The notes beneath the pieces are model-generated. The model searched no databases, was not told where the DNA came from, and saw nothing but the letters and a program-made list of their open reading frames with translations. Shown here one piece after another: positions 7,184 to 36,047 of a DNA stretch of 47,644 nucleotides; position 1 is the stretch's first letter; every line of letters begins with the position of its first letter. The DNA comes from a virus: the IMG/VR virus record IMGVR_UViG_3300029845_000021; one strand, written 5' to 3'. Both the position numbers and the translations under genes were made by a program.

Positions 7184-10100
7184 TTATTCATAAAATTCTG
7201 TTGCCCCCTTTTCTAACTCATCCGGTATAAACGGCATACCTACCATTTCTTTGAAGTTTACAATAACCTCAAACAAAGGTTTTCCGTCTGTTCCGCTTTG
7301 CAGATAAAAGCCATCATCAATATTTGAATTAGCCAAAAATCTAACTGACTCGCCCTGCTGAATTGGGAATGATATACTTTTAGACTGAATGTTCTTGGCA
7401 ATCTTTCTGTTTGCTTCAATGGTTGTTGAATATCGGCTGTTTGGAACTTCCGTTAATGAACCATCCGGCGCAACCTTTACAGCCCAAAAATTTGCCTCAT
7501 TCATTGTGCTTGTTTCGTTGTATGCCTGCCCGGAATACTGAATTGTTATAATTCCGTCTGCCTCCGCCAATAAATCTCCTTGAACTTTGTTTGGGTCAGA
7601 CGCTCCGGGGTCTGCCCATGCGTTATTGTTGCTTACCAACGCCAAACCCTTTTTAATTCCCAAAGGTATATTTCCTGCAATCTTGTTATATGTATATCGG
7701 TAACTTGCATCACCTGCCGGGGTCATAACAACAAATTTTGCATAGTCTTTCTGATACTCCAAATATTTTTCCGAAATATGCGAACTATCTGTTATTACCA
7801 TTCGATTAAACCACGGGGTTATATCCCCCTCAAAATCATTCAATACCATAGTTGTTGGTATCTGCGAAGCATTAGGGAATATAATTACCGCAAATTCCTT
7901 TGCGTCAGTAGGAACAACAAACGTTTTTGTTGCTTCATGGATTCCGCTCACTGCATCCTCTGATATAAATAATTTGTCAGAAATGCTCCATCCTGCATTG
8001 AATTGCGGTTGGTCGTTATTGTAACTTACCAATTCCGGTGTTGGTGCTACATTTTCCGACCCGGTGTACTTCATCAATGCAACCACAAAGGCATTTTGTT
8101 TGTCTGTAATTTTAACGGTAGCTTTGTAATTTTTACCACGGCAAACAAAGGTGTCAAATCTGTTATATCGCTTAAACAAAGAAAATACGGGCAAATCCTT
8201 GTTATTATCTTTAACAATTAGTTGATTATTAGATATACTTACCTTTGCTGCTGTCTTAACTGACAAATATGTATTATCCCCCATATATGTAACATCATTG
8301 TTAATTTCCGTTTCGGGTTCGGGGAAAATCAATGTCCTTGCAAGGTTCAAAGAATTATATCCGTAATACTTGTTGTTCATCTTTACTTGATACCCGGTAA
8401 ATGCCATAAATGCCAACAACGCCTTTCCTACTCCATAGTCTTTGCCTACTGACTGAATCAACACACATGAATTTGCCCCAATAGACAATAATTCTTCATT
8501 TGGGAAATTGGTTTCTATACGCAAATGAACATCAGTATATGCTTTGGCTTGACACTCTCCTAAATACAATTCTTTTCGCTGCTCATCGCCCGCATTGTAG
8601 TCAATTTGAACTGCCATAGGATTGCCGTTAACGTCCAATAACGGGGTATCTGTGTCGTCAACGAATTCAAGTCTAATCCAACCGTCCTGCGTAATTCTGT
8701 TATCCCCATATTGCGTTGGCTCAATATACAAGCCAATTAAAAAGGTTGTTCCTCCGGATATATTGGGGTCGTCCTGCGGGTCAATATCTTGTATAACGAA
8801 AGATTTCTTTTGCATATCTTGATATACAGCAATACCGCCTTTGACTTTCAAATCAGAAAACCACAATCGGGATTTTGGATATTTAGAATTTACCAATTCA
8901 TCATTTCCTAACATAGCCAATATTCCCTCCGCATCTTTTTCTGGAACAACGGATAAATCAGCCTTGTAAATCGGGTCGCCATCGGGTGTTTGTCCATTTC
9001 CAACTTGTGCAATGCGAACCGTTCCATCCATACTTCCGACCTCTGTTGCTTTGAATGATTTTTTTGTTATTTTATCATTAAACAGAAATGGAACATCGCC
9101 CAAATTTACATTTGCTTCGTCTGTGTCACTGTCGTATTCAATATAAAATGGTTTTTTGAATCGTAAATTCTTTGTCTGCAACACGATATTTCCCTGCTCA
9201 TCGCTTGTTGTTAGGCTGCTATCAATAGTTTTATACCACGGAATAAAATCCCACGTATTTTCGTTCTGAATAGGCAAAAAAATGCCTGCAATCCCATTGC
9301 TTGTAACGGTTATTGGTGTATTTGCCCCATCAATACTTTCTCCGCCTGCCGGGCTAATTATCGCCTTATAATTGGCTGCCCCCGGTTCTTGTATAAGTTC
9401 CAAAATGATAATACGGTTATCCGATACGGGCGGCAATGTCTGTTGAATTGTTTGGTTGTTGCTCATCTGATAAACCAACAACAAAGTTGTACTTTTGTTG
9501 TACGGGTCTGTATTCAGATTTACCCCCTTTTGTACCTCTTGGCGGTTGGCATAGAATAACGCCTTAATCTGCTCGTTTGTCTTTCCTGCTGTTGCCGGGT
9601 GCGCTGTTTTAGACAATGCAATAAAAGCCGCATTTTGCTTAATCATACGGTCAAACTCTGTTGGGCTTATTGGGTTCTTTGCGTCTGCCAATCCTGCCGC
9701 CAAACCTTTTTCTTTGAGTTTTGCCAAATCTACGTCCGCTAAATCATTCTGAGCAAAATTACCGTCCTTTGCTTTTTTCTCAAAGTCTTTTGCATCAACA
9801 TTTGAAAGGTTTTTGCTTGCCCCGCCCAATGCCGCCAGCGTTGCGGCAAACGCCGGGGTTTTTACATACTTATCCAAATAATCTTTAATCCATTGTTCGT
9901 CCGCTCCTGCCGGAACCCACGGGATTTGTGCTGCATCATTAATTTCAATCGGCAAATATACATCAACCCACATTGCGCCCTGCCTATCGGAAAGAAATGT
10001 TCCTTTCTGAACTACTTCAACGCCCAATTTCTGTTGGTTTTCTGAAATGTATGTTCCGGTAATTGCTTTCGTGTCGCCCAAATAGGTTTGTGTGTAAACT

Positions 10101-10342
10101 TGCATTTGCCCCAATCCTAAAAGCGGAACGATATTAAACAATAACATATCGTTCTGAATCTTACAATTGGTGCAAACCCCTTTGTTTACCTCAAATTCAA
10201 ACGGCTTACCGCTTCCGGTAAAAATCGAACCTTTGACGTGTACGGAATCCGCCTTAATTGGGGCGTTGTTCTTATCCCGGAACATCATCATAATAATTTG
10301 GCTACTGCCTGCTGATAATTGCTTTAATTGTGCCATAATCAT
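7184..10342 (-). CDS. Large tail fibre / receptor-binding structural protein (1052 aa)
   Basis: Call rests on size and on position in the tail module just upstream of the lysis genes. No enzymatic motif was recognised. Confidence 0.6.
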   Translation of the reverse strand: MIMAQLKQLSAGSSQIIMMMFRDKNNAPIKADSVHVKGSIFTGSGKPFEFEVNKGVCTNCKIQNDMLLFNIVPLLGLGQMQVYTQTYLGDTKAITGTYISENQQKLGVEVVQKGTFLSDRQGAMWVDVYLPIEINDAAQIPWVPAGADEQWIKDYLDKYVKTPAFAATLAALGGASKNLSNVDAKDFEKKAKDGNFAQNDLADVDLAKLKEKGLAAGLADAKNPISPTEFDRMIKQNAAFIALSKTAHPATAGKTNEQIKALFYANRQEVQKGVNLNTDPYNKSTTLLLVYQMSNNQTIQQTLPPVSDNRIIILELIQEPGAANYKAIISPAGGESIDGANTPITVTSNGIAGIFLPIQNENTWDFIPWYKTIDSSLTTSDEQGNIVLQTKNLRFKKPFYIEYDSDTDEANVNLGDVPFLFNDKITKKSFKATEVGSMDGTVRIAQVGNGQTPDGDPIYKADLSVVPEKDAEGILAMLGNDELVNSKYPKSRLWFSDLKVKGGIAVYQDMQKKSFVIQDIDPQDDPNISGGTTFLIGLYIEPTQYGDNRITQDGWIRLEFVDDTDTPLLDVNGNPMAVQIDYNAGDEQRKELYLGECQAKAYTDVHLRIETNFPNEELLSIGANSCVLIQSVGKDYGVGKALLAFMAFTGYQVKMNNKYYGYNSLNLARTLIFPEPETEINNDVTYMGDNTYLSVKTAAKVSISNNQLIVKDNNKDLPVFSLFKRYNRFDTFVCRGKNYKATVKITDKQNAFVVALMKYTGSENVAPTPELVSYNNDQPQFNAGWSISDKLFISEDAVSGIHEATKTFVVPTDAKEFAVIIFPNASQIPTTMVLNDFEGDITPWFNRMVITDSSHISEKYLEYQKDYAKFVVMTPAGDASYRYTYNKIAGNIPLGIKKGLALVSNNNAWADPGASDPNKVQGDLLAEADGIITIQYSGQAYNETSTMNEANFWAVKVAPDGSLTEVPNSRYSTTIEANRKIAKNIQSKSISFPIQQGESVRFLANSNIDDGFYLQSGTDGKPLFEVIVNFKEMVGMPFIPDELEKGATEFYE

Positions 10343-10803
10343 TTGAATTTTTTCTTGTTAATACTATGTTTATCATTAATCGCCTTTATTAGCTTTTCGG
10401 CTTCTTCTTTCGTTATACACTTGACTATTTCCGCCGCCATATCTATTGCCTCAACTGCATTGCTTTGTTTGAGTTCGTAATTCTCTTTCATGCTCCAACC
10501 CTCCCTTAATAGAATACCCAATGTCAGTAATACAACAAAAAATGGAATACTGTAAAAAGGAAAAACTATAAGCCCCAAAACATCAATCATCGATACGTAT
10601 AAAACTAAACGCAAATAGTCTATGATTTTTTGCCCGGTTTTCCGCATCGGGTGGCTGCTTAATTTTTCTTTTCTCGCTTTCACGGCTTCGTATGCCGTCC
10701 AAAAATCAAAGAATGTCGCAAATACTACAAAAACACAACATACAAAGATTATTATCAAACAAACTTTCATGTCGTGTTGAATGAAATAAAAATACTTTTC
10801 CAT
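10339..10803 (-). CDS. Holin-like multi-pass membrane protein
   Basis: 154 aa with three hydrophobic helices and a charged C-terminal tail. ATGA overlap with the next gene. Confidence 0.45.
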   Translation of the reverse strand: MEKYFYFIQHDMKVCLIIIFVCCVFVVFATFFDFWTAYEAVKARKEKLSSHPMRKTGQKIIDYLRLVLYVSMIDVLGLIVFPFYSIPFFVVLLTLGILLREGWSMKENYELKQSNAVEAIDMAAEIVKCITKEEAEKLIKAINDKHSINKKKFK

Positions 10804-10816
10804 CGGTCTTTTTTGT

Positions 10817-10836
10817 GGTGCGGATTGTTCCGCACC
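10817..10836 (-). promoter_or_regulatory. Stable hairpin in the leader of the holin-like gene
   Basis: GGTGCGGA-ACAA-TCCGCACC (8-bp stem with a tetraloop), 14 nt upstream of the ATG at 10803. It has no U tract, so it is not a canonical terminator. Confidence 0.3.
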
Positions 10837-10987
10837 GGGTTAAACTTTGCATATTTTGATAAAATATTTTTGTTCAAATATTCCCTAACAACAAAAACCT
10901 TTGTTGGTGTTACATAACAAATAACGGGCTAACCGTGGTAATGGCGATAATACGCCATTGCTCCCAATTAAAAATTCTTTCCATAAT

Positions 10988-13420
10988 TTAATGCAATACA
11001 TCTTCGATATATGGTTCATCTAAATAAAACTGCGCATATCTCAACATTTCATTTATTACAACATTTGCAATTAATCTTCCACCTTTATTATTTGGATGAA
11101 CTTGGTCAATTAAATATTCTTTTATATTTAGTGTTGAAATTCTACTTAAAGCATTAACATCTATTACTGGCAATCCGTATATAGCTGCCACATCTTTAAT
11201 AACCTTACAATAATCTAATATAGTAAGTTCTATTCTATTTTTATAAGGATAATCCGCATTATTATAACTATTATAAAAATTATGTGGTGTGCATAAAAAT
11301 ATTTTAGCATTTGGCAATCTTGCAACCAATTTTCGTATCATCAAACCATAAGCATACATAAAATGAGATTCATCGCCATCTTCTAAAGTACCAATCTCAA
11401 CACTCGCCGTAATATCATTTGCACCTGCATAAACACATAAAATATTCGTATCTAACGGTATTGTATTAATTCTTTCATCTCCGCACATATAATCAGATAT
11501 TGTAATTGTACCGCTATCGGGATTTGAGGCGTTATAATAACCATTCTCATCCACTTTCTTATTTTTTGGATTTACATCAGTTATCTTTGACCCTCCTATA
11601 CCCCTATTGTAGTGGTCTGCCATTCTTAAAAATTTCCATACATATTTTTGCCATGACATTAATTCAACAATAGAATCTCCGTATGATGTAAACTTCTTTC
11701 CTTCATAAGATAATCTTATAATAGTATTTATATTCAACAATGATTCTTTTATTTCTTCAACTTTACACGGAAAGTAATTAACCGAAGCAAATGGAAATAA
11801 TGTTATATTCTGAAAATTTAATACAATATAACTCGGCGTATTATCTATTTTTACTTCCCTAAATGTGTTTAATTGTGTTCCCGTATATTTTATCCATTCG
11901 CCTAAATCATTATAAGTTCCTACACTAAATGCATTGGTAAATATAGACTTAACGTTTGTATCTATTGGAATAAATTGCGTTGTTTTATATGATGCATTAC
12001 TTTGATATGAACCATTAACATTATTATAACCTTCTATTATATTATTAATTATAATATTTTTATCATAATCAATATTAGGAATTTCAGTAATTCCAAATTG
12101 TATAGGTATAAAATTTTCCTCAAACCCAATATAATAAAATTGACGTTCTTTGTTATTCCAACCTTTAACAAATGTGGCATCTTTGGGGATTTCTTTTTTT
12201 CTAATATCAACACCGCTTCCGGTAATCGATATAATTTTACTCAAAAAAACCAAATTATCTTTAGTGCCGGTATAGAAAAACAACGAATAGGAATTTGTAT
12301 ATATAAATTTTTTATTCTTAGGTATTTCAATTGCTTCTATTACTACACCATTACCTTTTATAACATTTCCACTATTATCTATTGTCTTATTTTCATATAA
12401 TAACTCATTATAGACTTTGTTAATTGATGATTGCGCAATAGCATCATAAATATTATAATTTAATTCTAATATTTCATTAAAGTCTTTATATGTCAATATT
12501 CTTTCCCAATTAGAATCTTTTATCCAATTGGAATTATCAAACGTTGTACCTTTATATGTTTCTATAACTTGATTAATCCCGTCATTATAAGTTATTGTAA
12601 ATCCTTGTTTACGTGCTATTAGACTAACTTGTAGTCTTGTATTCAATACATTAGTGCCGTATGATAATGTTTCAAAGCAATAGTTATCAATAGGTATATA
12701 TGATTCGACTTCTCTAATTTGACCTAAATACAAATAACTTCTATAAATACCCGTATCATCCTTATAAGAAAAGATTAATCCCTCTCTCTTATAATAAGTA
12801 TTTGGTAGTGCTTGTCTTGCTGTATTAGGTGAATTATATGTTGAATTAGTTACAAAACTAATATTAATAAATGGCAATTTAGTTGACGGGAAAATACTTG
12901 CCCAATATAAATTATCTTGCCAATATGCATCATCCATTAATGTACCTATATACATTTCCGTTGTTAACTCTCCGGTTTTACCATTTCTATAACTTAATAT
13001 TTTCCCGGTTCTTCTATTTGATTTTGCAACTTGTAATCTTGTTGTTTTTAAATCCGTATTAAAATCAATTGCAATTGCTGCTTTTTTTTCTATATCTTTT
13101 AAAGATTGCGATAGTGCTATACCCGCACTTTGCTTTACCCAACTACCAGTTTTATTAGTAAATATTACAACTTCATCATTTACTTCTATTGCATTAAAAT
13201 TACTATAAGTACCATTTATTGAAGCAATCCAAAAAACATTTTGGTCGGGTGTACCGGGATTTGTTGACGGTATTGCAATCCCGGCAAATGTCGCATTACT
13301 TCCGACCGTTGCAATAATAGATAATAAAGCATTTTGCATTATCTTCCCCGTAATTTTTTGGTTTCCGTTTGTTTTAATTACATCGGAAATCGCTTGTTTT
13401 AATTGTTCGTAATTTCCCAT
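10988..13420 (-). CDS. Tail fibre/spike with a C-terminal SGNH (GDSL) esterase domain
   Basis: All four SGNH blocks occur in the last ~230 aa: SYGDSIVE, RGIGGSKI, YAGANDIT and DQVHPN. The gene is very AT-rich except for its first ~70 codons. Confidence 0.75.
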   Translation of the reverse strand: MGNYEQLKQAISDVIKTNGNQKITGKIMQNALLSIIATVGSNATFAGIAIPSTNPGTPDQNVFWIASINGTYSNFNAIEVNDEVVIFTNKTGSWVKQSAGIALSQSLKDIEKKAAIAIDFNTDLKTTRLQVAKSNRRTGKILSYRNGKTGELTTEMYIGTLMDDAYWQDNLYWASIFPSTKLPFINISFVTNSTYNSPNTARQALPNTYYKREGLIFSYKDDTGIYRSYLYLGQIREVESYIPIDNYCFETLSYGTNVLNTRLQVSLIARKQGFTITYNDGINQVIETYKGTTFDNSNWIKDSNWERILTYKDFNEILELNYNIYDAIAQSSINKVYNELLYENKTIDNSGNVIKGNGVVIEAIEIPKNKKFIYTNSYSLFFYTGTKDNLVFLSKIISITGSGVDIRKKEIPKDATFVKGWNNKERQFYYIGFEENFIPIQFGITEIPNIDYDKNIIINNIIEGYNNVNGSYQSNASYKTTQFIPIDTNVKSIFTNAFSVGTYNDLGEWIKYTGTQLNTFREVKIDNTPSYIVLNFQNITLFPFASVNYFPCKVEEIKESLLNINTIIRLSYEGKKFTSYGDSIVELMSWQKYVWKFLRMADHYNRGIGGSKITDVNPKNKKVDENGYYNASNPDSGTITISDYMCGDERINTIPLDTNILCVYAGANDITASVEIGTLEDGDESHFMYAYGLMIRKLVARLPNAKIFLCTPHNFYNSYNNADYPYKNRIELTILDYCKVIKDVAAIYGLPVIDVNALSRISTLNIKEYLIDQVHPNNKGGRLIANVVINEMLRYAQFYLDEPYIEDVLH

Positions 13421-13431
13421 AATCTAATAAT

Positions 13432-14298
13432 TTAATTGTTGTTGAAATCATTATTGAAATCTTCGTTAAAATCTCCTTTGTTTGCTGTTATATTATAGCC
13501 ACGTCCTATTTTCTTGACGACGGTATTTGTTTTAAATTCAATTTCCACGCTCGCCAAATCTCCCTGCGTTTGCCATTTTGGGGTAATTAGAAACGTGTCG
13601 CAATCGTATTCCCTGCCGTATTTATCCGTTATATGAATATAATCAGCCATACGGATAAAACGCATAACGTCGCAAAGGAACTCCGGTGCCAATATCGTAC
13701 ATTTAAACGTTTTGACTGATATTTGTTTTTCCGGAAAAAAATACCCGTCCCGTTCTTCGCCATCCTCTTCAAATTCATAATCCGGTTTTCCCAACTCTGT
13801 ACAAAGGTACAACGTATTTTTGAAATCCGGGTTTTTATATACTATTTGCCCGGCGTCAAATACCAAATTTTCAATATCCCACCATTGTATTTTTAAGTAA
13901 CCGGAAACATCTTGCACGACCGTAAACATTTCAGAATACCACGTTTGCGCGCCATCCGATAACGTCATATAATATATTCCGTCCAACTGATTTAATGGCA
14001 TGGGTAATATTGACGGGTACAATATAACATCATAACCCAACGTTTGAAACCGGACAATCTGCAATCCGGTTTCTTTCATGTACGTTGTTATGTTTGCAAC
14101 TTGTTTTCCGGTTTTATCGTACAATATAACCGACGACACATTATTTGCCCGTGTGTTTCTGATTATCTGAAAAGGTAACAATCTATCAGCCGGGGCAAAC
14201 AACGGGTAAATTGCGCCGTATGCGTAACTTTTTCTGTGGTTCTGTTCATTTATTGACGTGTACCACGGCAAAACGCTTATATTATTATTCTGTATCAT
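13432..14298 (-). CDS. Tail/baseplate-associated structural protein (hypothetical)
   Basis: 288-aa ORF between tail genes. It overlaps the upstream gene by 14 nt. Confidence 0.6.
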   Translation of the reverse strand: MIQNNNISVLPWYTSINEQNHRKSYAYGAIYPLFAPADRLLPFQIIRNTRANNVSSVILYDKTGKQVANITTYMKETGLQIVRFQTLGYDVILYPSILPMPLNQLDGIYYMTLSDGAQTWYSEMFTVVQDVSGYLKIQWWDIENLVFDAGQIVYKNPDFKNTLYLCTELGKPDYEFEEDGEERDGYFFPEKQISVKTFKCTILAPEFLCDVMRFIRMADYIHITDKYGREYDCDTFLITPKWQTQGDLASVEIEFKTNTVVKKIGRGYNITANKGDFNEDFNNDFNNN

Positions 14299-16489
14299 AT
14301 TTCAACGTTGCTTTAATGTTTCGACTACACAAATTTACGCTTAATTTATCAACTTGACCGTTACCGATATATGTTTTAACTAACTGCATCGGGTTTGGGT
14401 CTGTGGTTCCTGCCGGGAAATTCAATGTTTGTTTCTTTTTACGTTCCAATCCTCCCATAGCATAATATGGGGAATTATTTATTTTGAAATTCCGTGCGGG
14501 CATATCATAAACCCAATATGTCGGTTGTATATTGATAAACGCTAAATATCCATTTTGCAAAAAATATTCTACGCTATCAACGGTTTGTCTTGTGAAAGGC
14601 AATTCCAATTGTCCGCCGCCGGACGGCGTAACTGCTGCAAACAATGCGAATCCATCGGAACTAATTGCACCGGGGTTTAACAACATCAAATCTATGTCAG
14701 ACGTAAAATTTGATATGTTAATTTCTTCAATTTTCCCGGCTGTTACATATTTTGACGTAATTTCTATTGGCAACCCCTCAAATGGTGTTGTTACATCATC
14801 CATCCACTCAAATCGATAACGTTCCGGCATTTCTACTTTGTCAAATGAATATTCAGACGTTGCAAAAGCTAATTTTTTGCCGTTCCTAACGCTTTCTAAT
14901 TGTGTTAAATCATAATCAATAATCGGGTTATATCCATACGAACCGCCATTTCTAAACCAACTTACCTGTTCAATTTTAAATTTTCCGTCCTCAATATACC
15001 AATAACATTTGTAAATATCCCGTAACATCGTCATAATCTGTTGTAATGTAATCGGGGCTTTTTGCGCCGGGGTTTTATATTCGCCATTAATGATATTACT
15101 TTTCTGACTTATTAGCAACTTAAATGACTGCCCGGAAATAGGATTGTTTGTGTTATAAAGAAATTGGCTGTATTCCGGCGTCGCTTCATGCGTTATTCCG
15201 GGCGCAAATTCTTTTAATAGCACATTGATACATGACGACAATGTAAACGCATCACGCAAAGTATATGCTTTTCGGGCTTTTTCCTCTAATATCCAATCCA
15301 TCAGATAAAACCCAAACCATAACGACGCATAACGCCACGTTGACCGGGCGATTGGATAAAACGTTTGTCCATATATGGAATAAGGCGGCTCAAAATACTT
15401 TCCACTGTCGGCTAATCCCCACTCGGTCGGCGTATCTGAAAAATTATTAGATATAAATGCCACGTCGATTGCGTAACCAATTGCCCGGCGGTAATTTCTA
15501 TTATTATCTACAATATCATCGGACGACAACGGGTATGTATCTAAATCGCCTATTTTATCAACATCAACCAAATACCGGGCGTATATATTATAACTTTTCA
15601 TATCGGCGTGCATCGTACCCGTTGCTCCGGAACCCTCAACGGCGGTTAAATCAAATTCCAACGTATCAAAAGGTTCTTGCGTCATCTTTGTATACCGGAA
15701 CATTGCCACATCATCAGAACGGCGGCGTATCTCAACACCTGCTAGCCCAATAGGTAGCCCACCCGCAACTCGTTTTTGTGCAATATGGATATAATAATTT
15801 ACATTTAATTCCGGGTATAAATCTCCCATAAATTCATCAGGACTTACACTCGTCGACATCCGCCCACTATAAAGCCCGGATATTACCGCCGGGGAACCTT
15901 GCGACGTAATTTGTATTTCTTTCAAAATATTACATAGTGCAAAATGATAGGTTTGTATTAATGCGTTTTGGTCAGTCGTGGCGTTTGCGTCTTGTTCCCA
16001 ATTCGTGCCGCCCAAAAAGCACGAAACAATACTATCTCCGGGAACGTATATTTGTATCAATGGGCGTTTTCTTATTGTAAGAAATTCGATTTGTGGGGCC
16101 AACTCAATTAAATTGTATTCCTTTTCCAATCCTGCCAAGACGTCGTTGTATTGGTCTATTGTTTCCGGCTGTACCGTAACCAATTTATCATCATCATTAA
16201 ACGTACAATCCGTTTTCATAAACTTTGCTTTATAGTATTGATTGTATGTTTGTCCCCAATCATCGCTTTTTTCGATATATAGGAAAAATTCAGAATCAAA
16301 CGGGGCGTTATTGATAATATCGTAATCAGCACGGACAAAGTTTATTTTACCGGACAATTTAGCCCGGTAAAACCTTTGATTTGTTTCCAACTCATAATCC
16401 AACGTTAAATCATCCTTATAATTGGGGCGGACGGTTTGTTTGGTTCCGTCCTCCCCTATCTGCAAAAAGAATCTATATTTTGGTGTCAT
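14285..16489 (-). CDS. Distal tail / tail-tip structural protein (hypothetical, 734 aa)
   Basis: Immediately downstream of the tape measure gene with a 4-nt overlap. Size and position are typical of distal tail or tail-tip proteins. Confidence 0.6.
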   Translation of the reverse strand: MTPKYRFFLQIGEDGTKQTVRPNYKDDLTLDYELETNQRFYRAKLSGKINFVRADYDIINNAPFDSEFFLYIEKSDDWGQTYNQYYKAKFMKTDCTFNDDDKLVTVQPETIDQYNDVLAGLEKEYNLIELAPQIEFLTIRKRPLIQIYVPGDSIVSCFLGGTNWEQDANATTDQNALIQTYHFALCNILKEIQITSQGSPAVISGLYSGRMSTSVSPDEFMGDLYPELNVNYYIHIAQKRVAGGLPIGLAGVEIRRRSDDVAMFRYTKMTQEPFDTLEFDLTAVEGSGATGTMHADMKSYNIYARYLVDVDKIGDLDTYPLSSDDIVDNNRNYRRAIGYAIDVAFISNNFSDTPTEWGLADSGKYFEPPYSIYGQTFYPIARSTWRYASLWFGFYLMDWILEEKARKAYTLRDAFTLSSCINVLLKEFAPGITHEATPEYSQFLYNTNNPISGQSFKLLISQKSNIINGEYKTPAQKAPITLQQIMTMLRDIYKCYWYIEDGKFKIEQVSWFRNGGSYGYNPIIDYDLTQLESVRNGKKLAFATSEYSFDKVEMPERYRFEWMDDVTTPFEGLPIEITSKYVTAGKIEEINISNFTSDIDLMLLNPGAISSDGFALFAAVTPSGGGQLELPFTRQTVDSVEYFLQNGYLAFINIQPTYWVYDMPARNFKINNSPYYAMGGLERKKKQTLNFPAGTTDPNPMQLVKTYIGNGQVDKLSVNLCSRNIKATLKYDTE

Positions 16490-19400
16490 AGTCTTTTTAT
16501 TTTACGTTTCAAATTCTTGTAACTTTCAATCGTATTTCCGTCGCCATCCACGTAAACCCGTCGTCGGTTCTGTTCCTTAATTTCCCTTACATCATCCGAC
16601 AAATTGCGTAAATCCGGGCTTTGTCCGGTAACGTTTAACGTCAAACCGTCGCCGTCTGAATAGGATTTTAAATACTTATGTGCAAACGTACCATTGTTTA
16701 GCGAATTGATAACGTCCGGTATTATCTTTCTGAAACGGCGTGAACTTCGTTTATTTATCACGGCGAAAAATTCGCCTCCCTCGGCACGTCGGCGGGTTCC
16801 GTCCGGTTTCGTTCCTAAATCAATATCATTTCCGCTTTGGTGCGAACCGCCCTCCAAAAGTTCAACGGTACCGTCGCCGTATGTTTCCGTTCCTCCGGTT
16901 CCTCCGGTCTGTTTTGCCAATTGCGCCGCCTTGATTTTAGACGCTGCAAAACTCGCCCACATTACGGCAATTGCAGGTATTGCAAACGGGAAACCTAATT
17001 GCGACCATATCAGCGCCGTTGCTGTTACCATGTTTCCGATTTGCTGCAATGTTTGTATTGCTGCCTGCTGTTTTTGCGCTTTCTGTTGTTCTTTCAACGC
17101 TTTTTCTTGGTTTTTCTTTGCCAAATCCAACTCCTTTTGCGCTTGTACAACATTATTGGCGTACCCGTTTGCCCTTGCTTCCAATTCTGCATCCAACGCC
17201 GATTGTGCGGCGGAAACCTCTTTATCCGCTTGCTCAACGGCTGCATCTGCTGCGGCAACACGTGCCGCCGTGAATGTATTTAACGCATCCAATGCGTATT
17301 GCATAGACGTATTAATTGCCTCTTTTTGGTCGTCGTCCAAATTAAGCCCAAACAAACCGTAAATGTCTGTTCCTCGTTCCTCCCCTTTGGATTGCTCAAT
17401 TTCTTGGTCTATTTTTTTAATAGTGTTTTGAATTGTTTGTACCTCAACATCAGACAATTTATTGGCGGCTTGCTGATTTAATTCTAAAACCTTTTGCAAA
17501 CGTTCCTTTTCTGCTTGCAAACGGAATTGAGTTTTCCGGGCTTCTGAATTTCTCAACAAATCAAACTCCGATTGTGCCAACGCTTGTTGTTGGTCGAATA
17601 TCTGTAATTGCGCTTGCAAATATTCGTCCACAATTCCGGCTCCCTTTGCGTCAAAACTTGCATTAATCGCCCCGGCGTCTTGCTGTTGCCCGGTCGGTTT
17701 CTGTTGGTTCTGTAATAATGCGGTTTGTCTTTCGTTTTCCAACAACTGCATCCGCAATTGTCTTTCCTGCTCGCTTCCCTTTTTGACTGCTTGCAAACGT
17801 AATTCAATGCTTTCTTTCTGCAACGCCAATTCCTGCAATTGTCGGTCTTGTTCGATTTTCAATAATGCCTCGGTTTGTTGCTGTTCCAACGCCGTAATTG
17901 TGGCGTTTATCGCTTGGCGTCCGGTTTCGTTCAAATCCTTTTCGGTCTGCAATTGGTGTTGTAAATCCTCAATTTGGCGGGAATACTGATATTGCGTTTG
18001 TTGGCGACGCTTTGCCCATTCGTCGGTTTCCAACTGCAATTGTGCATCCTGCAATTTTCGGGTTGCTTCCAAATTCTTTTTATATGCCGCCTCAATTTGT
18101 TTTGCTTGCTGTTCTGCTGCCTTTTCCGCATCGCTTTTACCCCTCGGCGTTACGGTTGGGTCCTGTGTTGTTACGGGTTTGTTCCCGGTCGGTTCTTTTG
18201 GCGTATCTCCTACGGAAACGGGGATTGTTATCGGCTTTATTTTCTTTTGCATATCATCCAACCCCTCTTTGAAATTTTGGGTAATGTCCTTTACTTGTGC
18301 TTTTACCAAATTTCCGTATGCGGCTGCATAATCTGACAACCCTTTTTTAACGTCGTCAAAATCCAACGTAAACGCTCCCTTTAATGCGGTTCCGGTTGCT
18401 TTGACAATATCAATAAAGAATCCAAACAAATTTCCCAACGTGTCAAATGTGGTTTTAAATCCGGCAACTATACCGTTCCAAATGGCACGTATCAAAACAC
18501 TTTCATTGTACAACTCAATAAAGTAATTGACAACATCAATAACCCCTTTTATTATCGCCGTCAATCCTTGGTTAACAAAAACTTTTGCCTGCGTTGTCAA
18601 CGTTTCAAAATTTCCTCCGATTGCGTCAAACAACCCGGATAATGCGTTTTGCAACTCAATTTGGCTTTGCAATTGTTCCTCCTGCAATTGCGCCAAAACT
18701 CCGGCTTTCCCTTTTACTTCATCCATGTTTGTTGAAATATCTTTCAACGTGCGCAAATACTGCAATCCGGCGTCCTCTCCGGGTCCCCCGAATATATCTG
18801 CAATTGCAGCTCCGACCGTTGCCGCATTATCCGGCAATTCTGCCAATTTTGCGGAAACGTCTTGTATAACATCGAACGTTGTTTTGGTTCCGGTCTGCAA
18901 ATCTTTTTGAACTTGTTCCGACGAAATACCGATACCGTCCAAAGCCGCCGCCGTCGCCGTCGTCATTTCACGCAAACGCAAATTTGCCTCCTTAATTGCG
19001 TCAACGCCTTTGTCCGAAAAGATACCCATTTTGTTTGTTTGGGCTACAATCGCAACAAATTGGTCTGCTGATATTCCAGCCTCTTTGAAATATGCCGGGT
19101 ATTCTTTCAACGTGTCTAAAAATTCCCCGTTCGCATCGGCTCCGGACAAAAAACCATCCTTAACCAACTGCAATGCCTCATTTGCAGAAATACCAAATTG
19201 TTTTGATAATGCGTTTGTTGCAATCAATGTTTCCCGGAAATCTGCGCCGAACGAATCTGCGACGGCTTGCACCTCATTTCTAAACGCTTTCAAATCATCG
19301 CCACTTTTCCCGGTAAATTGTTGCGTCAATCTCGTTGCCTCAACTAACCCGGCGTTATAATCGTACCACCATTTAAACGCCGCACCCGCCGCCGCAATTC

Positions 19401-20151
19401 CGGCAATCGCCAAAAAAACCGGGTTTGAAAGTAATCCCAACAAAGTTTTTCCCAATGCTTTTGCCCCGTCGCCAATAGCTGTAAAAACGGCTTTACTTTC
19501 AGCCCCGCCACGTCCTAACGCCAAAAGACTTTCGCCAAATGCGCTATTTAAACCTAACGTTTCTTTTAATTTGTCGCCATACGCAATAATTGCGTCGGAC
19601 GCCTCCGTATAATTTCCGACGTTCAATTGAAATTTCCCGGTTGCTTCCTGCAAACGTTTCATTTCTTCGTATATTTCTTTGGTTTGTGCAACCAATTTTC
19701 GCCCCTCCTCGGTGTTTTCCCGTTCGGCTTTAGTCATGTTGTTTAAATAAATCTTATTCAATGAATATTGCGCCGATAAACGGTTATAACTACCCTCGGC
19801 GGATTGATTTATTTTCACAATCAGTTTATTAATTTGGTTCGCTTCCTGCTGTGCCAATTTTAACTCGGCTAACTTTTTGGCGTTCTCGCTTTCTGCAAAC
19901 GCCAAATCACGTTGCGCACGTGCCAAACGTTCCGCATCGTCTGCGGCTTTTTTGGTTGTCTTTCGCCCGTCCTCCGTTGCGCCGGAAACCTTTTTCAGAA
20001 TCTCCGCCAATTGTATTGCTTCGGCTTTGATATTTTTCAGCGCATTTGTATATGTGTCCGAAAGTTCATCCAATTGTTTTATCAAATCTGTAATCGAATT
20101 ATCCGGGCTTATTAAATCCGAATATTTGATTGGGTTGTTATTATCTGCCAT
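16486..20151 (-). CDS. Tail tape measure protein (1221 aa)
   Basis: Longest gene. It has extended coiled-coil Q/E/A/L-rich regions and central hydrophobic glycine-rich segments (LAIAGIAAAGAAF). Its position matches a tape measure gene. Confidence 0.85.
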   Translation of the reverse strand: MADNNNPIKYSDLISPDNSITDLIKQLDELSDTYTNALKNIKAEAIQLAEILKKVSGATEDGRKTTKKAADDAERLARAQRDLAFAESENAKKLAELKLAQQEANQINKLIVKINQSAEGSYNRLSAQYSLNKIYLNNMTKAERENTEEGRKLVAQTKEIYEEMKRLQEATGKFQLNVGNYTEASDAIIAYGDKLKETLGLNSAFGESLLALGRGGAESKAVFTAIGDGAKALGKTLLGLLSNPVFLAIAGIAAAGAAFKWWYDYNAGLVEATRLTQQFTGKSGDDLKAFRNEVQAVADSFGADFRETLIATNALSKQFGISANEALQLVKDGFLSGADANGEFLDTLKEYPAYFKEAGISADQFVAIVAQTNKMGIFSDKGVDAIKEANLRLREMTTATAAALDGIGISSEQVQKDLQTGTKTTFDVIQDVSAKLAELPDNAATVGAAIADIFGGPGEDAGLQYLRTLKDISTNMDEVKGKAGVLAQLQEEQLQSQIELQNALSGLFDAIGGNFETLTTQAKVFVNQGLTAIIKGVIDVVNYFIELYNESVLIRAIWNGIVAGFKTTFDTLGNLFGFFIDIVKATGTALKGAFTLDFDDVKKGLSDYAAAYGNLVKAQVKDITQNFKEGLDDMQKKIKPITIPVSVGDTPKEPTGNKPVTTQDPTVTPRGKSDAEKAAEQQAKQIEAAYKKNLEATRKLQDAQLQLETDEWAKRRQQTQYQYSRQIEDLQHQLQTEKDLNETGRQAINATITALEQQQTEALLKIEQDRQLQELALQKESIELRLQAVKKGSEQERQLRMQLLENERQTALLQNQQKPTGQQQDAGAINASFDAKGAGIVDEYLQAQLQIFDQQQALAQSEFDLLRNSEARKTQFRLQAEKERLQKVLELNQQAANKLSDVEVQTIQNTIKKIDQEIEQSKGEERGTDIYGLFGLNLDDDQKEAINTSMQYALDALNTFTAARVAAADAAVEQADKEVSAAQSALDAELEARANGYANNVVQAQKELDLAKKNQEKALKEQQKAQKQQAAIQTLQQIGNMVTATALIWSQLGFPFAIPAIAVMWASFAASKIKAAQLAKQTGGTGGTETYGDGTVELLEGGSHQSGNDIDLGTKPDGTRRRAEGGEFFAVINKRSSRRFRKIIPDVINSLNNGTFAHKYLKSYSDGDGLTLNVTGQSPDLRNLSDDVREIKEQNRRRVYVDGDGNTIESYKNLKRKIKRL

Positions 20152-20254: not shown

Positions 20255-21028
20255 TTATTTTACCTTTTTTTGCTTGTTTGCTTTTTTGGCTTGTTCCTTG
20301 ATATACTCAAATGCGTTGTAATATTCCAAAACGGTAAATTTCTTTGGGTCAACATGCAAATTTTGGGACAATATCAAACACATATTTTCAAATTGTCTGT
20401 CATGCCTAATTTCCACGCTTTCCGACCCGGTAAACGTCTGCGGGTTGAAATAGGTTATCAACTCCGCCGTAATGTCGTCAATCTCTTTTGCGTCCGCCTC
20501 GGTTGCCCGACCGTCTATTATTGTGCGTAATACAACAATCGTTCTTTGTTTCAATTTATCGTAATACTCTTTCAATGTCGCATCATCGAACAACCGGGGA
20601 AAATACAAACGCAATTCATCGTCTATTTTTTTTTTAACCGCTTCCAAATGGGCGGTTATCTCTGAATTTGCAACGTCTTTAAAAAGACTCATTGTTTGTT
20701 GCAATCCATCATCTGACAAATCATTTCGGGGTTTACCATTTATTGATTTAACCAACACGGCAAAAGCCAAATGCCGGGGGGAAACCTCGGATTGAATGAA
20801 ATATATGTTTTGGCGCATATTTTCCAACTCAACGGTTGCCATGTTTGGCGTTGGGCTGTTCAAATAACGTATTACCTTTTCAATATGTCGGTCAAAATCC
20901 GATAAATCAGAACCAACCCCGGCGTCAACCAAAAGCATTTTGTTATACTTGTGGAAACGCAACATCGGCAATTCGTCTATACTATCATACAATACAACAT
21001 TATGTTTATTTATAATACATTCTTTCAT
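20255..21028 (-). CDS. Helical protein upstream of the tape measure gene (tail assembly chaperone candidate)
   Basis: The call rests on position only. No downstream frameshift-extension ORF was found. Confidence 0.5.
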   Translation of the reverse strand: MKECIINKHNVVLYDSIDELPMLRFHKYNKMLLVDAGVGSDLSDFDRHIEKVIRYLNSPTPNMATVELENMRQNIYFIQSEVSPRHLAFAVLVKSINGKPRNDLSDDGLQQTMSLFKDVANSEITAHLEAVKKKIDDELRLYFPRLFDDATLKEYYDKLKQRTIVVLRTIIDGRATEADAKEIDDITAELITYFNPQTFTGSESVEIRHDRQFENMCLILSQNLHVDPKKFTVLEYYNAFEYIKEQAKKANKQKKVK

Positions 21029-21029
21029 A

Positions 21030-21548
21030 TTATGCCCTCCTAAAACTATATCCTTTTGCGGTTTTCCTTTCCCCTTTTAAGCATTTACATATATTTTGGT
21101 GTGATATACCCAACTTCATACCAGCGATATTTATACTTTCAAATATTTGTATATTATCACCTTTTTTGCATATTATACGACAACTTCTCCCATGTCCTTT
21201 CCCACTTTCACAATATCTATAATCTCTTATTTTACAACGCCCTAAACTATCTGAATATTTAATATTTTCAGATTGCGTACACCATTCTAAATTATCAACG
21301 TTGTTATTAAGCGGGTTACAATCAATATGATTAACATTAGGCTTTAATTCAGAGTTAATAAGGAAATGCATTGCTACAAGTCTATGAATATAACACCACC
21401 GCTTACCATTAGCGTTGTATAATGCTACCGACAAATAACCCTTATTTGTTATTTTAGGTTTTAATATTCTACCTGTTTTATTTTTTACATTACCCATATT
21501 GCTAATATAATATGGGTAATCCTTAATTTTTACATATTCTTCATTCAT
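21030..21548 (-). CDS. Free-standing HNH homing endonuclease (NUMOD4 + HNH_3 + C-terminal HTH), inserted in the tail module
   Basis: YPYYISNMGNVKNKTGRILKP, VNHIDCNPLNNNVDNLEWCTQSEN and the C-terminal AGMKLGISHQNICKCLKGERKTAKGYSF. The gene is AT-rich. Confidence 0.8.
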   Translation of the reverse strand: MNEEYVKIKDYPYYISNMGNVKNKTGRILKPKITNKGYLSVALYNANGKRWCYIHRLVAMHFLINSELKPNVNHIDCNPLNNNVDNLEWCTQSENIKYSDSLGRCKIRDYRYCESGKGHGRSCRIICKKGDNIQIFESINIAGMKLGISHQNICKCLKGERKTAKGYSFRRA

Positions 21549-35522: not shown

Positions 35523-36047
35523 TTATAAAGTTATTCTTTCTTGTAAGTCTAAAACCCATCCTTTGCCAAACCTCAATTTTACAATTTCAATTGCTTGTTT
35601 CAAAGCCTCAAACTTTGTATAAAATGCGTTTGTATTATCTCCGGGTTTATAGTTTTCCCATCTTATTGGGTCGTTCTCAATTTCTTCTTTCGTCAATTTT
35701 CGCATAACTTCAATTGTATATATTTCGTCGTATTTGCCTCTGTTCTTTTGGCAAATCTGCGCATATTCATCGCATATATACCCGCCGTGAATTGTCGTCC
35801 TATCTTCTTTTACTTCTGAAATAGTTATTCCATCGGCTTTTATTGCTGCATAATAATGAATGGCACCCGCCGCTATTCCACGGTATGACGAAATTTCAAT
35901 TCTAACTTTTCTTGGATTGTTTGTACTTACAATATAATTTGGTTTTGTTTTCAGAACTAAATCCAAACCATAATCAACCGGAATTACATCGGGTAAATTT
36001 CCGCAATCCAAAGACAAATCAACTGCATCTTTTATTGTTAATTCCAT
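35523..36047 (-). CDS. Hypothetical protein (174 aa)
   Basis: ATG-initiated ORF with tight spacing. Confidence 0.55.
   Translation of the reverse strand: MELTIKDAVDLSLDCGNLPDVIPVDYGLDLVLKTKPNYIVSTNNPRKVRIEISSYRGIAAGAIHYYAAIKADGITISEVKEDRTTIHGGYICDEYAQICQKNRGKYDEIYTIEVMRKLTKEEIENDPIRWENYKPGDNTNAFYTKFEALKQAIEIVKLRFGKGWVLDLQERITL

Follow-up and report, generated by a model that had tools for sequence, protein, structure and literature searches.

We analysed a stretch of viral DNA of 47,644 nucleotides (nt), IMG/VR record IMGVR_UViG_3300029845_000021, which at its full length is called the window here, and in particular one gene in it that lies at 10988..13420 on the minus strand. The open reading frame (ORF) of this gene starts with ATG and encodes 810 amino acids (aa). 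On the minus strand, which carries all the features of the window described below, the gene order is a tape-measure protein (TMP; 16486-20151, recognized by PF10145 and PHROG 20660), a 734-aa protein, a 288-aa protein (13432..14298), the 810-aa protein, a 184-nt spacer, a 154-aa membrane protein, a 1,052-aa protein, an Amidase_3 endolysin and a DUF6549 protein. The 810-aa gene immediately follows the tail genes for the TMP and for the 734-aa and 288-aa proteins, and this position, distal to the tape-measure and tail-tip genes, assigns it to the tail module. The tail genes are syntenic with those of the Parabacteroides phages PDS1 and PD491P1, with identities to the counterparts of 77% for the 734-aa protein and 60-75% for the 288-aa protein, and both phages have a single protein of ~1,130 aa in the slot that the 810-aa gene fills in the window. 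The phage studied here is related to PDS1 and PD491P1, yet distinct from them.

The 810-aa protein ends in an SGNH/GDSL esterase domain (aa 575-800, 11021..11698), which was identified by Pfam, by sequence matches in the Protein Data Bank (PDB), by motif alignment and by Foldseek. The first-pass annotation of this DNA had described a complete SGNH hydrolase at the C-terminus, and all four blocks were found at the residues that it gave: GDS at 581-583, GGS at 609-611, GANDI at 666-670 and DQVHP at 772-776. The catalytic codons are those of S583 in block I (11672-11674), G610 in block II (11591-11593), N668 in block III (11417-11419), and D772 (11105-11107) and H775 (11096-11098) in block V. The Pfam profile PF13472 matched aa 580-782 (E=4.2e-13), and its score of 50.6 bits exceeds the cutoff of 32.9. 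In an alignment of 31 family sequences, with homologues down to 48% identity, S583, G609, G610, N668, D669, D772 and H775 were invariant, as were many of the positions around the catalytic residues. The PDB sequence searches matched the SGNH proteins 7bxd, 3bzw and 3dc7. In Foldseek, the C-terminal part of an AlphaFold2 (AF2) model matched the same three structures with a probability of 1.0 and template modelling (TM) scores of 0.66-0.79 normalized to the target, although the predicted local distance difference test (pLDDT) score within the domain was only ~60-80. The next matches were the acetylxylan esterase Axe2, a sialate O-acetylesterase of Phocaeicola vulgatus and CE3 esterases. Blocks I, II, III and V, the profile score and the alpha/beta fold all place the domain in the SGNH/GDSL superfamily. 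In a fold search of BFVD, long phage proteins with SGNH domains were abundant, among them the tailspike of Pectobacterium phage PP99, the tail fibre of Klebsiella phage PKP126 and a protein of Pseudomonas phage LIT1.

The rest of the protein is composed of an N-terminal anchor and a series of smaller units. The anchor (aa 1-95, 13136..13420) was delimited by PHROG 36068 (aa 4-102), by tblastn and by an alignment of 44 cassettes, and is the sole part conserved among all the proteins found in this slot. It is followed by a domain of ~60 aa of unknown function that recurs as R1 (aa 117-177, 12890..13072), R2 (aa 184-250, 12671..12871) and R3 (aa 251-310, 12491..12670). Local alignment gave z=10.5 relative to shuffles for R1 with R3 and z=4.7 for R1 with R2, a tally of two clear copies and one weak copy, and the same domain in another cassette (L019) aligns to both copies. 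The AF2 secondary structure then contains, with low confidence, a long helix at aa 311-331 (12428..12490), which in this model is possibly a trimeric neck. The best-modelled part is an all-beta, sandwich-like domain at aa 340-435 (12116..12403; pLDDT 84-92), and going by the model it is possibly a carbohydrate-binding module. A second beta-rich region (aa 452-566, 11723..12067) was poorly modelled and shows weak similarity to the first one (z=2.1). Outside aa 340-430 and the SGNH core, the AF2 monomer model was poor.

The slot occupied by the gene is hypervariable. The 288-aa tail gene, which forms its 5' flank, is conserved at an identity of at least 92% in 80 IMG/VR loci, and by anchoring on it we compared the gene just downstream in each of them. 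This gene encodes 523-1,211 aa across the loci, and the proteins share with the 810-aa protein only the first ~95-113 residues, at 37-79% identity. When 44 slot proteins were aligned, 25 columns were invariant, every one of them within residues 1-75. The distal parts of 64 slot proteins, clustered at an identity of at least 40% over at least 60% of the length, fell into 40 clusters, and only three of these proteins (those of L009, L010 and L012) have the cassette of the window. The slot pool therefore comprises at least 40 cassette types in near-identical backbones. A conserved adaptor joined to an exchangeable distal part among close relatives is the organization of a modular receptor-binding protein (RBP), and in this respect the first-pass annotation, which had suggested a fibre-type gene with a conserved N-terminal anchor and a swapped distal part, was supported by the 40 distal clusters and by the sharp DNA junctions described below.

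Esterases are frequent in this pool. In the Pfam census of 44 sampled cassettes, PF13472 (Lipase_GDSL_2) was found in 18, PF00657 (Lipase_GDSL) in six, a set that probably overlaps the former, DUF4886 in three, and SASA (sialate O-acetylesterase family), Beta_helix and DUF2334 in one each. With DUF4886 and SASA, both of which we take to be members of the SGNH clan, about half of the sampled cassettes have SGNH-clan esterases. The number of PF13472 cassettes was taken from Pfam because an iterative search with a hidden Markov model (HMM) was too insensitive and recovered only seven. Although the cassettes cannot otherwise be aligned, their majority consensus retains GDS…G…GxN…DxxH at the C-terminal end. 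A separate class of cassettes of ~1,000 aa (L011, L015, L056, L063 and L075), together with L069, has a GC content of 46-47% and a GC content at third codon positions (GC3) of 0.46-0.51, above the ~38-42% of the backbone, and no Pfam domain was found in this class. We considered whether the class might represent the 'native' PDS1-type protein and rejected this, for its match to PDS1 gp60 is confined to the anchor.

The two parts of the gene have different relatives. In tblastn, aa 1 to ~100 matched the slot proteins of PDS1 (61%), PD491P1 (56%), BKO1-3, AS73P1 and C1_85S2P, as well as Elizabethkingia and Croceibacter phages. In comparison, the sole phage match of aa 102-807 was gp13 of an unrelated temperate Bacteroides phage, BS-TP3, at 55%. 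Separate searches with the N-terminal and the remaining part had been proposed in the first-pass annotation as a check on a module swap, and the different nearest relatives favour a mosaic gene. A large-database search with aa 102-810 found a graded series of proteins of 802-812 aa, from 98% down to 58% identity, a family of 734-758 aa in P. vulgatus prophages and a third family of 612-616 aa; the same module is thus found on three different N-terminal adaptors. Two further searches were uninformative. The 100-aa anchor retrieved only fragments of 60-172 aa without Pfam domains from the large database, so that no census of fused domains could be made, and when representative bacterial genomes were scanned for the module, the result was one contig of 1.9 kb labelled Veillonella, probably a mis-binned contig of a metagenome-assembled genome (MAG), which tells nothing about hosts or donors.

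The borders of the exchangeable unit were located by comparing the DNA of the window with that of phages that have the same backbone and other cassettes. At the 5' border, the point at which homology is lost varies between 13332 and 13083 (codons ~30-113). At the 3' border, homology resumes at 10984-10991, at the stop codon, in nine loci and at 10847-10848 in four others, within the conserved intergenic spacer (10804..10987) that serves as the 3' homology arm. These positions indicate that the exchangeable unit begins inside the region that codes for the anchor and ends with the stop codon. The spacer also contains two inverted repeats able to form hairpins, caacaaaggtttttgttg and, just upstream of the start of the 154-aa gene, ggtgcggaacaatccgcacc; the 3' junctions of the second class lie a short way upstream of the latter hairpin. 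When the gene and the spacer were scanned for promoter and terminator consensus sequences, nothing exceeded shuffle expectation, and neither hairpin was flagged.

One exchange was caught in its recent state. In a comparison by codon blocks, a distant phage (L006) was 97-98% identical to the window at the nucleotide level over codons ~61-145 only (12986..13240; 92% in the last block), compared to 62-72% before this tract and 45-70% after it, and its tail proteins are only 36-46% identical to those of the window. The sequence comparison shows unambiguously that distant phages exchanged this tract recently. The drop in GC3 of the gene falls at the 5' edge of the tract, which puts the boundary of '~70 codons' in the first-pass annotation near a real junction. 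That boundary holds to some extent for the DNA, where the recombination junction is at about codon 55-61, but not for the protein, in which the conserved anchor reaches ~aa 95-113.

The base composition of the gene is strongly atypical. Its GC content is 28.4%, compared to 40.4% in the rest of the window, and its GC3 of 0.178 is ~4.3 standard deviations below that of the 39 other ORFs (0.413±0.055). With the exception of one at 21001, all the 500-nt windows with a GC below 30% were in the gene or at its edge (starts 10751-12751); the lowest value, 0.234, was reached inside the gene. The maximum-likelihood low-GC segment by total GC is 10838-13498, that is, the whole gene and ~150 nt of the downstream spacer. 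The abrupt break claimed earlier was therefore confirmed by sliding-window GC and codon usage and is far beyond chance, but its size had been overstated: 60-nt lines of the cassette average 27.6% (13-38%) instead of 13-27%, and the upstream tail genes, which are indeed higher, average 41.7% instead of 43-45%. The first ~70 codons, said to have a normal GC, were approximately so, as codons 1-60 are intermediate (GC 38%, GC3 ~0.30) and at about codon 55-65 GC3 drops to 0.17 or below. After the 810-aa gene, the lowest GC3 in the window (0.22) is that of a 172-aa ORF at 21030-21548, which encodes an HNH homing endonuclease of the I-HmuI type (NUMOD4, HNH_3 and NUMOD1) and is an insertion between the tail genes for 192 aa and 257 aa; in a close relative (L089) there is only a gap of 258 nt at this position. 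Low GC3 thus marks two kinds of mobile DNA in the window. A third low-GC3 ORF (0.27; 174 aa, 35523-36047) had no Pfam match.

In the first-pass annotation, this composition was explained by a single recent horizontal acquisition from a specific lower-GC donor, with the low GC as a fading signature of that donor. The gene being the strongest compositional outlier in the window accords with such an event, as do the mobile HNH endonuclease as the sole other ORF with a GC3 below 0.25, the different cassettes in about 60 of the 64 sibling phages, the recent exchange tract with another phage lineage, and the slot proteins of the cultured PDS1 and PD491P1, in which the distal GC is normal (42-44%), so that AT-rich cassettes are not universal. 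However, low GC is not a mark of this cassette alone, because most of the unrelated slot cassettes are similarly AT-rich, with a distal GC of 27-35% and a GC3 of 0.14-0.26, and the GC of their backbones is ~38-42%. The cassettes of ~1,000-1,017 aa, with 46-47% GC, are clearly different, and L062 is borderline (GC3 0.30). Among 35 genomic contexts of the module family, on at least four backbones, no carrier had a flank GC below 35.6% and no candidate donor was found, and the GC of the module was at or below that of its flanks in all 35. BS-TP3 was considered as the low-GC donor and rejected, since the GC of its gp13 (36.7%) equals that of its own locus. The graded series of the 802-812-aa architecture down to 58% identity likewise speaks against one recent import.

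The divergence and the substitution pattern of the cassette also speak against a recent import. In five siblings with the same cassette, the nucleotide identity to the window is 95.4-98.8% in the cassette and 94.9-99.5% in the backbone genes, and from this equal divergence it follows that the cassette was in place before the sibling phages diverged. We then polarized the singleton substitutions among the six sequences. In the cassette, 44 changes from AT to GC and 45 from GC to AT were counted, giving an equilibrium GC of 0.273 compared to an actual GC of 0.278; in the backbone, there were 88 and 101, respectively, giving 0.385 compared to 0.418. The fraction of changes from AT to GC in the cassette was 0.494, whereas 0.620 would be expected under the regime of the backbone (binomial p=0.011). 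The rate of GC to AT per GC site was 1.95 times that of the backbone (Fisher p=5e-4), and the rate of AT to GC per AT site did not differ (p=0.50). Because the substitutions are balanced at 0.273, it appeared that the cassette is held at its low GC and is not ameliorating. In short, the gene has the atypical composition of a transferred island, while a matching donor lineage and signs of amelioration or of lower divergence were not found, and we consider a recent acquisition from a lower-GC donor unlikely. The test of polarity should be weighed with two reservations that count against our reading: it is based on six sequences with 89 informative singletons, and some of the singletons may have come from the AT-rich pool in small recombined tracts instead of arising by point mutation. 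Short tracts of that origin would still fit a model in which the pool itself is AT-rich.

A broader explanation may be offered for this pattern, which we put forward tentatively and hold to be possible but not the likelier outcome. The tail-tip slot of this clade may draw on a large shared reservoir of cassettes, mainly polysaccharide O-acetylesterases and not depolymerases, that remains stably AT-rich (GC3 ~0.15-0.25) in whatever genome carries it. This AT-richness could be maintained by continual recombination within the pool. Alternatively, it could result from a cassette-specific regime of mutation or selection, by analogy with the low-GC O-antigen and capsule loci of the target bacteria.

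For the 810-aa gene itself, we regard it as probable that it encodes the exchangeable distal RBP of a gut Bacteroidales siphovirus, whose SGNH domain de-O-acetylates the capsule or lipopolysaccharide (LPS) of the host and whose cassette belongs to an AT-rich pool. The first ~95-113 residues would form an adaptor, conserved in the lineage, by which the protein docks to the tail tip. The remainder would be the exchangeable cassette, made of two to three repeats of ~60 aa, a neck formed by the helix, two beta-rich domains with a probable role in carbohydrate binding, and the C-terminal SGNH esterase with a predicted complete Ser-Gly-Asn-Asp/His catalytic set. Most likely, the enzyme would act as part of the virion, binding and de-O-acetylating the capsular polysaccharide or LPS of the host, and the recognition and modification of this receptor would set the host range. 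Cassettes may be exchanged by homologous recombination, with the anchor-coding 5' end (codons ~30-113) as one arm and the spacer that starts from the stop codon as the other, and the pool would keep its own AT-rich composition (GC3 ~0.14-0.26) regardless of the carrier genome. The protein is most likely a host-range determinant acting on an O-acetylated surface polysaccharide. In this account the ORF, its motifs and SGNH fold, the mosaic junctions, the diversity of the slot and the equilibrium of the composition are results of the analysis, whereas the attachment to the virion, a trimeric state, the substrate and the influence on host range are deduced.

Several points weigh against this reading. 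The full-length AF2 monomer model was poor, with a mean pLDDT of 54.7, and the adaptor, the repeats and the second beta domain consequently have no confident fold assignment; fold searches with this model gave SGNH matches alone, and no fibre or tailspike fold was recognized. The nearest solved SGNH structures are uncharacterized 'putative lipases', so the substrate class is suggested by the context and not by homology. The description of PDS1 includes no virion proteomics, which makes the placement of slot proteins on the virion a deduction. In the temperate relatives, moreover, the homologous gene adjoins the lysis genes in the opposite orientation.

The last point leads to a different function, in which the SGNH domain is a cell-wall enzyme, perhaps a peptidoglycan O-acetylesterase, that aids DNA entry or lysis and does not act on capsule or LPS. 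The homologue stands beside holin and endolysin genes in BS-TP3 and in a P. vulgatus prophage, a holin-like gene and the Amidase_3 endolysin lie downstream of the 810-aa gene in the window, and the catalytic domain of peptidoglycan O-acetyltransferase B (PatB) of C. jejuni was among the weaker Foldseek matches (rank 46). However, the enzyme resides behind a conserved anchor in a slot with 40 types in near-identical backbones, and such diversity is expected for variable surface glycans and not for invariant peptidoglycan. The alternative cassettes include a SASA sialate esterase and a beta-helix, both typical of polysaccharide-directed enzymes, and the stronger structural neighbours are carbohydrate acetylesterases. 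We therefore consider a role on the cell wall improbable. Non-catalytic binding domains derived from enzymes occur in phage fibres, and the SGNH domain might in the same way be an inert binding module; this is the least probable of the alternatives, because the catalytic residues and many positions around them are invariant in the 31 homologues. Nearly as improbable is a true lipase or lysophospholipase that attacks outer-membrane lipids or the acyl chains of lipid A. The names 'Lysophospholipase L1', given in GenBank to the nearest cultured homologue, and 'putative lipase', given to the top PDB neighbours, would suggest such an enzyme, but these are automatic or structural-genomics labels without assays. 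The characterized structural neighbours act on acetylated sugars, and the phage SGNH RBPs that have been tested are acetyl esterases (PMC13123978, PMC8471582, PMC9569702).

The exchangeable distal RBP with a de-O-acetylating domain, which we prefer, can be compared with several known systems. The closest in sequence are gp13 of BS-TP3 (XPO95366.1) and its 734-758-aa homologues in P. vulgatus prophages, with which the whole distal module is shared; the identity of gp13 to the 810-aa protein at 55% extends over the repeats, the beta domains and the SGNH domain. These homologues differ in having another N-terminal adaptor of ~30 aa (MAKMHKLTKGGQTI...), in belonging to temperate phages with an integrase, in the inverted orientation of the gene relative to its neighbours, beside the lysis genes, and in a GC of 36.7% and a GC3 of ~0.35, compared to 28.4% and 0.18 in the window. 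In BS-TP3, gp13 and the DUF4886 protein gp11 have one adaptor of ~35 aa in common. An N-terminus of this length, MxKMHKLTKGGQTI[FY]PATIxDAVVNP, is shared in the temperate relatives by the SGNH protein and a second large protein, and loci with two such proteins are BS-TP3 itself (L001; 7911-10115 and 11483-14125) and L008 (10001-12277 and 12442-15210). The inverted SGNH gene beside the lysis genes is a moron-like layout, and its expression from the prophage is conceivable.

The closest in position are gp60 of PDS1 and gp16 of PD491P1 (candidate genus Sagittacolavirus), which occupy the same slot beside the same syntenic tail genes and whose N-terminal ~95-103 aa are 56-61% identical to those of the 810-aa protein. 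Their distal 1,000 or more aa are unrelated to it, have no SGNH domain matching the module family and have a GC of 42-44%. In the description of PDS1, the gene in this slot was remarked on as a variable tail gene of unexplained function (PMC10773633), and the coexistence of PDS1 with its host is mainly determined by phase variation of the capsule (PMC12118408).

The closest in kind are SGNH proteins of phages of other bacteria. The tailspike gp63.1 of E. coli phage G7C is an SGNH O-antigen deacetylase which, as summarized in PMC13123978, removes an O-acetyl group from the receptor polysaccharide without depolymerizing it. It is a virion RBP with an SGNH esterase domain, as the 810-aa protein is predicted to be. 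However, G7C is an N4-like podovirus of Enterobacteria and the likeness is one of kind and not of family; the phage tblastn (E of 1e-5 or less) gave no hit to G7C or to any N4-like E. coli phage, and gp63.1 was absent from the top 50 PDB fold matches. By analogy, the 810-aa protein plausibly works like gp63.1 while standing outside its family. Further examples are the SGNH RBPs of Klebsiella prophages with confirmed esterase activity (PMC13123978), the SGNH deacetylase RBP of Acinetobacter phage Aristophanes (PMC8471582) and the deacetylating SGNH fibre of Pectobacterium phage Possum (PMC9569702). They resemble the 810-aa protein in being modular fibres that end in SGNH esterases and in their association with capsule types, and differ in their Proteobacteria hosts and in their adaptor and shaft domains; in the parts of the three papers that were consulted, no base-composition phenomenon turned up. 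A full-text literature search found no paper on SGNH RBPs in Bacteroidales phages. The 810-aa protein probably belongs to the known modular tail fibres with SGNH esterases and is a good example of such a host-range module, whereas a single recent import is unlikely.

The genes downstream of the cassette are variable as well. The 154-aa gene (10339..10803), which encodes the holin-like membrane protein, lies outside the cassette and starts an optional pair with the 1,052-aa gene (7184-10803 for both) that is present in about one third of the sibling loci; those without the pair have a gene of 172-178 aa instead. The N-terminus of the 1,052-aa protein is conserved and the remainder is variable (405 aa in L010, 277 aa in L012 and 289 aa in L059), so that this gene looks like a second modular slot, and its position between the holin-like gene and the Amidase_3 endolysin is unusual. 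More than 240 Vibrio phage records, as well as Clostridium phage CB452P1, contain the C-terminal ~580 aa of the 1,052-aa protein again. The idea that the 1,052-aa protein is the displaced C-terminus of a PDS1-type gp60 split by an insertion was rejected, as BLASTP gave no similarity to PDS1 gp60 or PD491P1 gp16. A search for phage tRNAs that might explain the codon bias found none.

The interest of the locus is moderate and lies in the size of the cassette pool and its bias towards esterases in abundant gut phages, as well as in the stable AT-rich composition of the pool. Phase variation of the capsule is the main route by which gut Bacteroidales and their phages coexist, and the phage proteins that read the capsule are almost uncharacterized. 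The locus identifies the slot of the variable gene of PDS1 and gives precise bounds of the exchangeable unit, and it points to O-acetyl esterases as one of the major classes of enzyme with which these phages read capsules. For the engineering of host range by cassette swap, the anchor and the spacer next to the stop codon offer ready-made arms. A fibre gene can be AT-rich without having been imported recently, and the low GC in this case appears to be a stable property of the pool. If the slot does draw on a shared and stably AT-rich reservoir of esterases, de-O-acetylation would be the prevailing way in which these abundant gut phages read phase-variable capsules, and the base composition of a fibre gene would mark its membership in a mobile pool and not the recency of its transfer.

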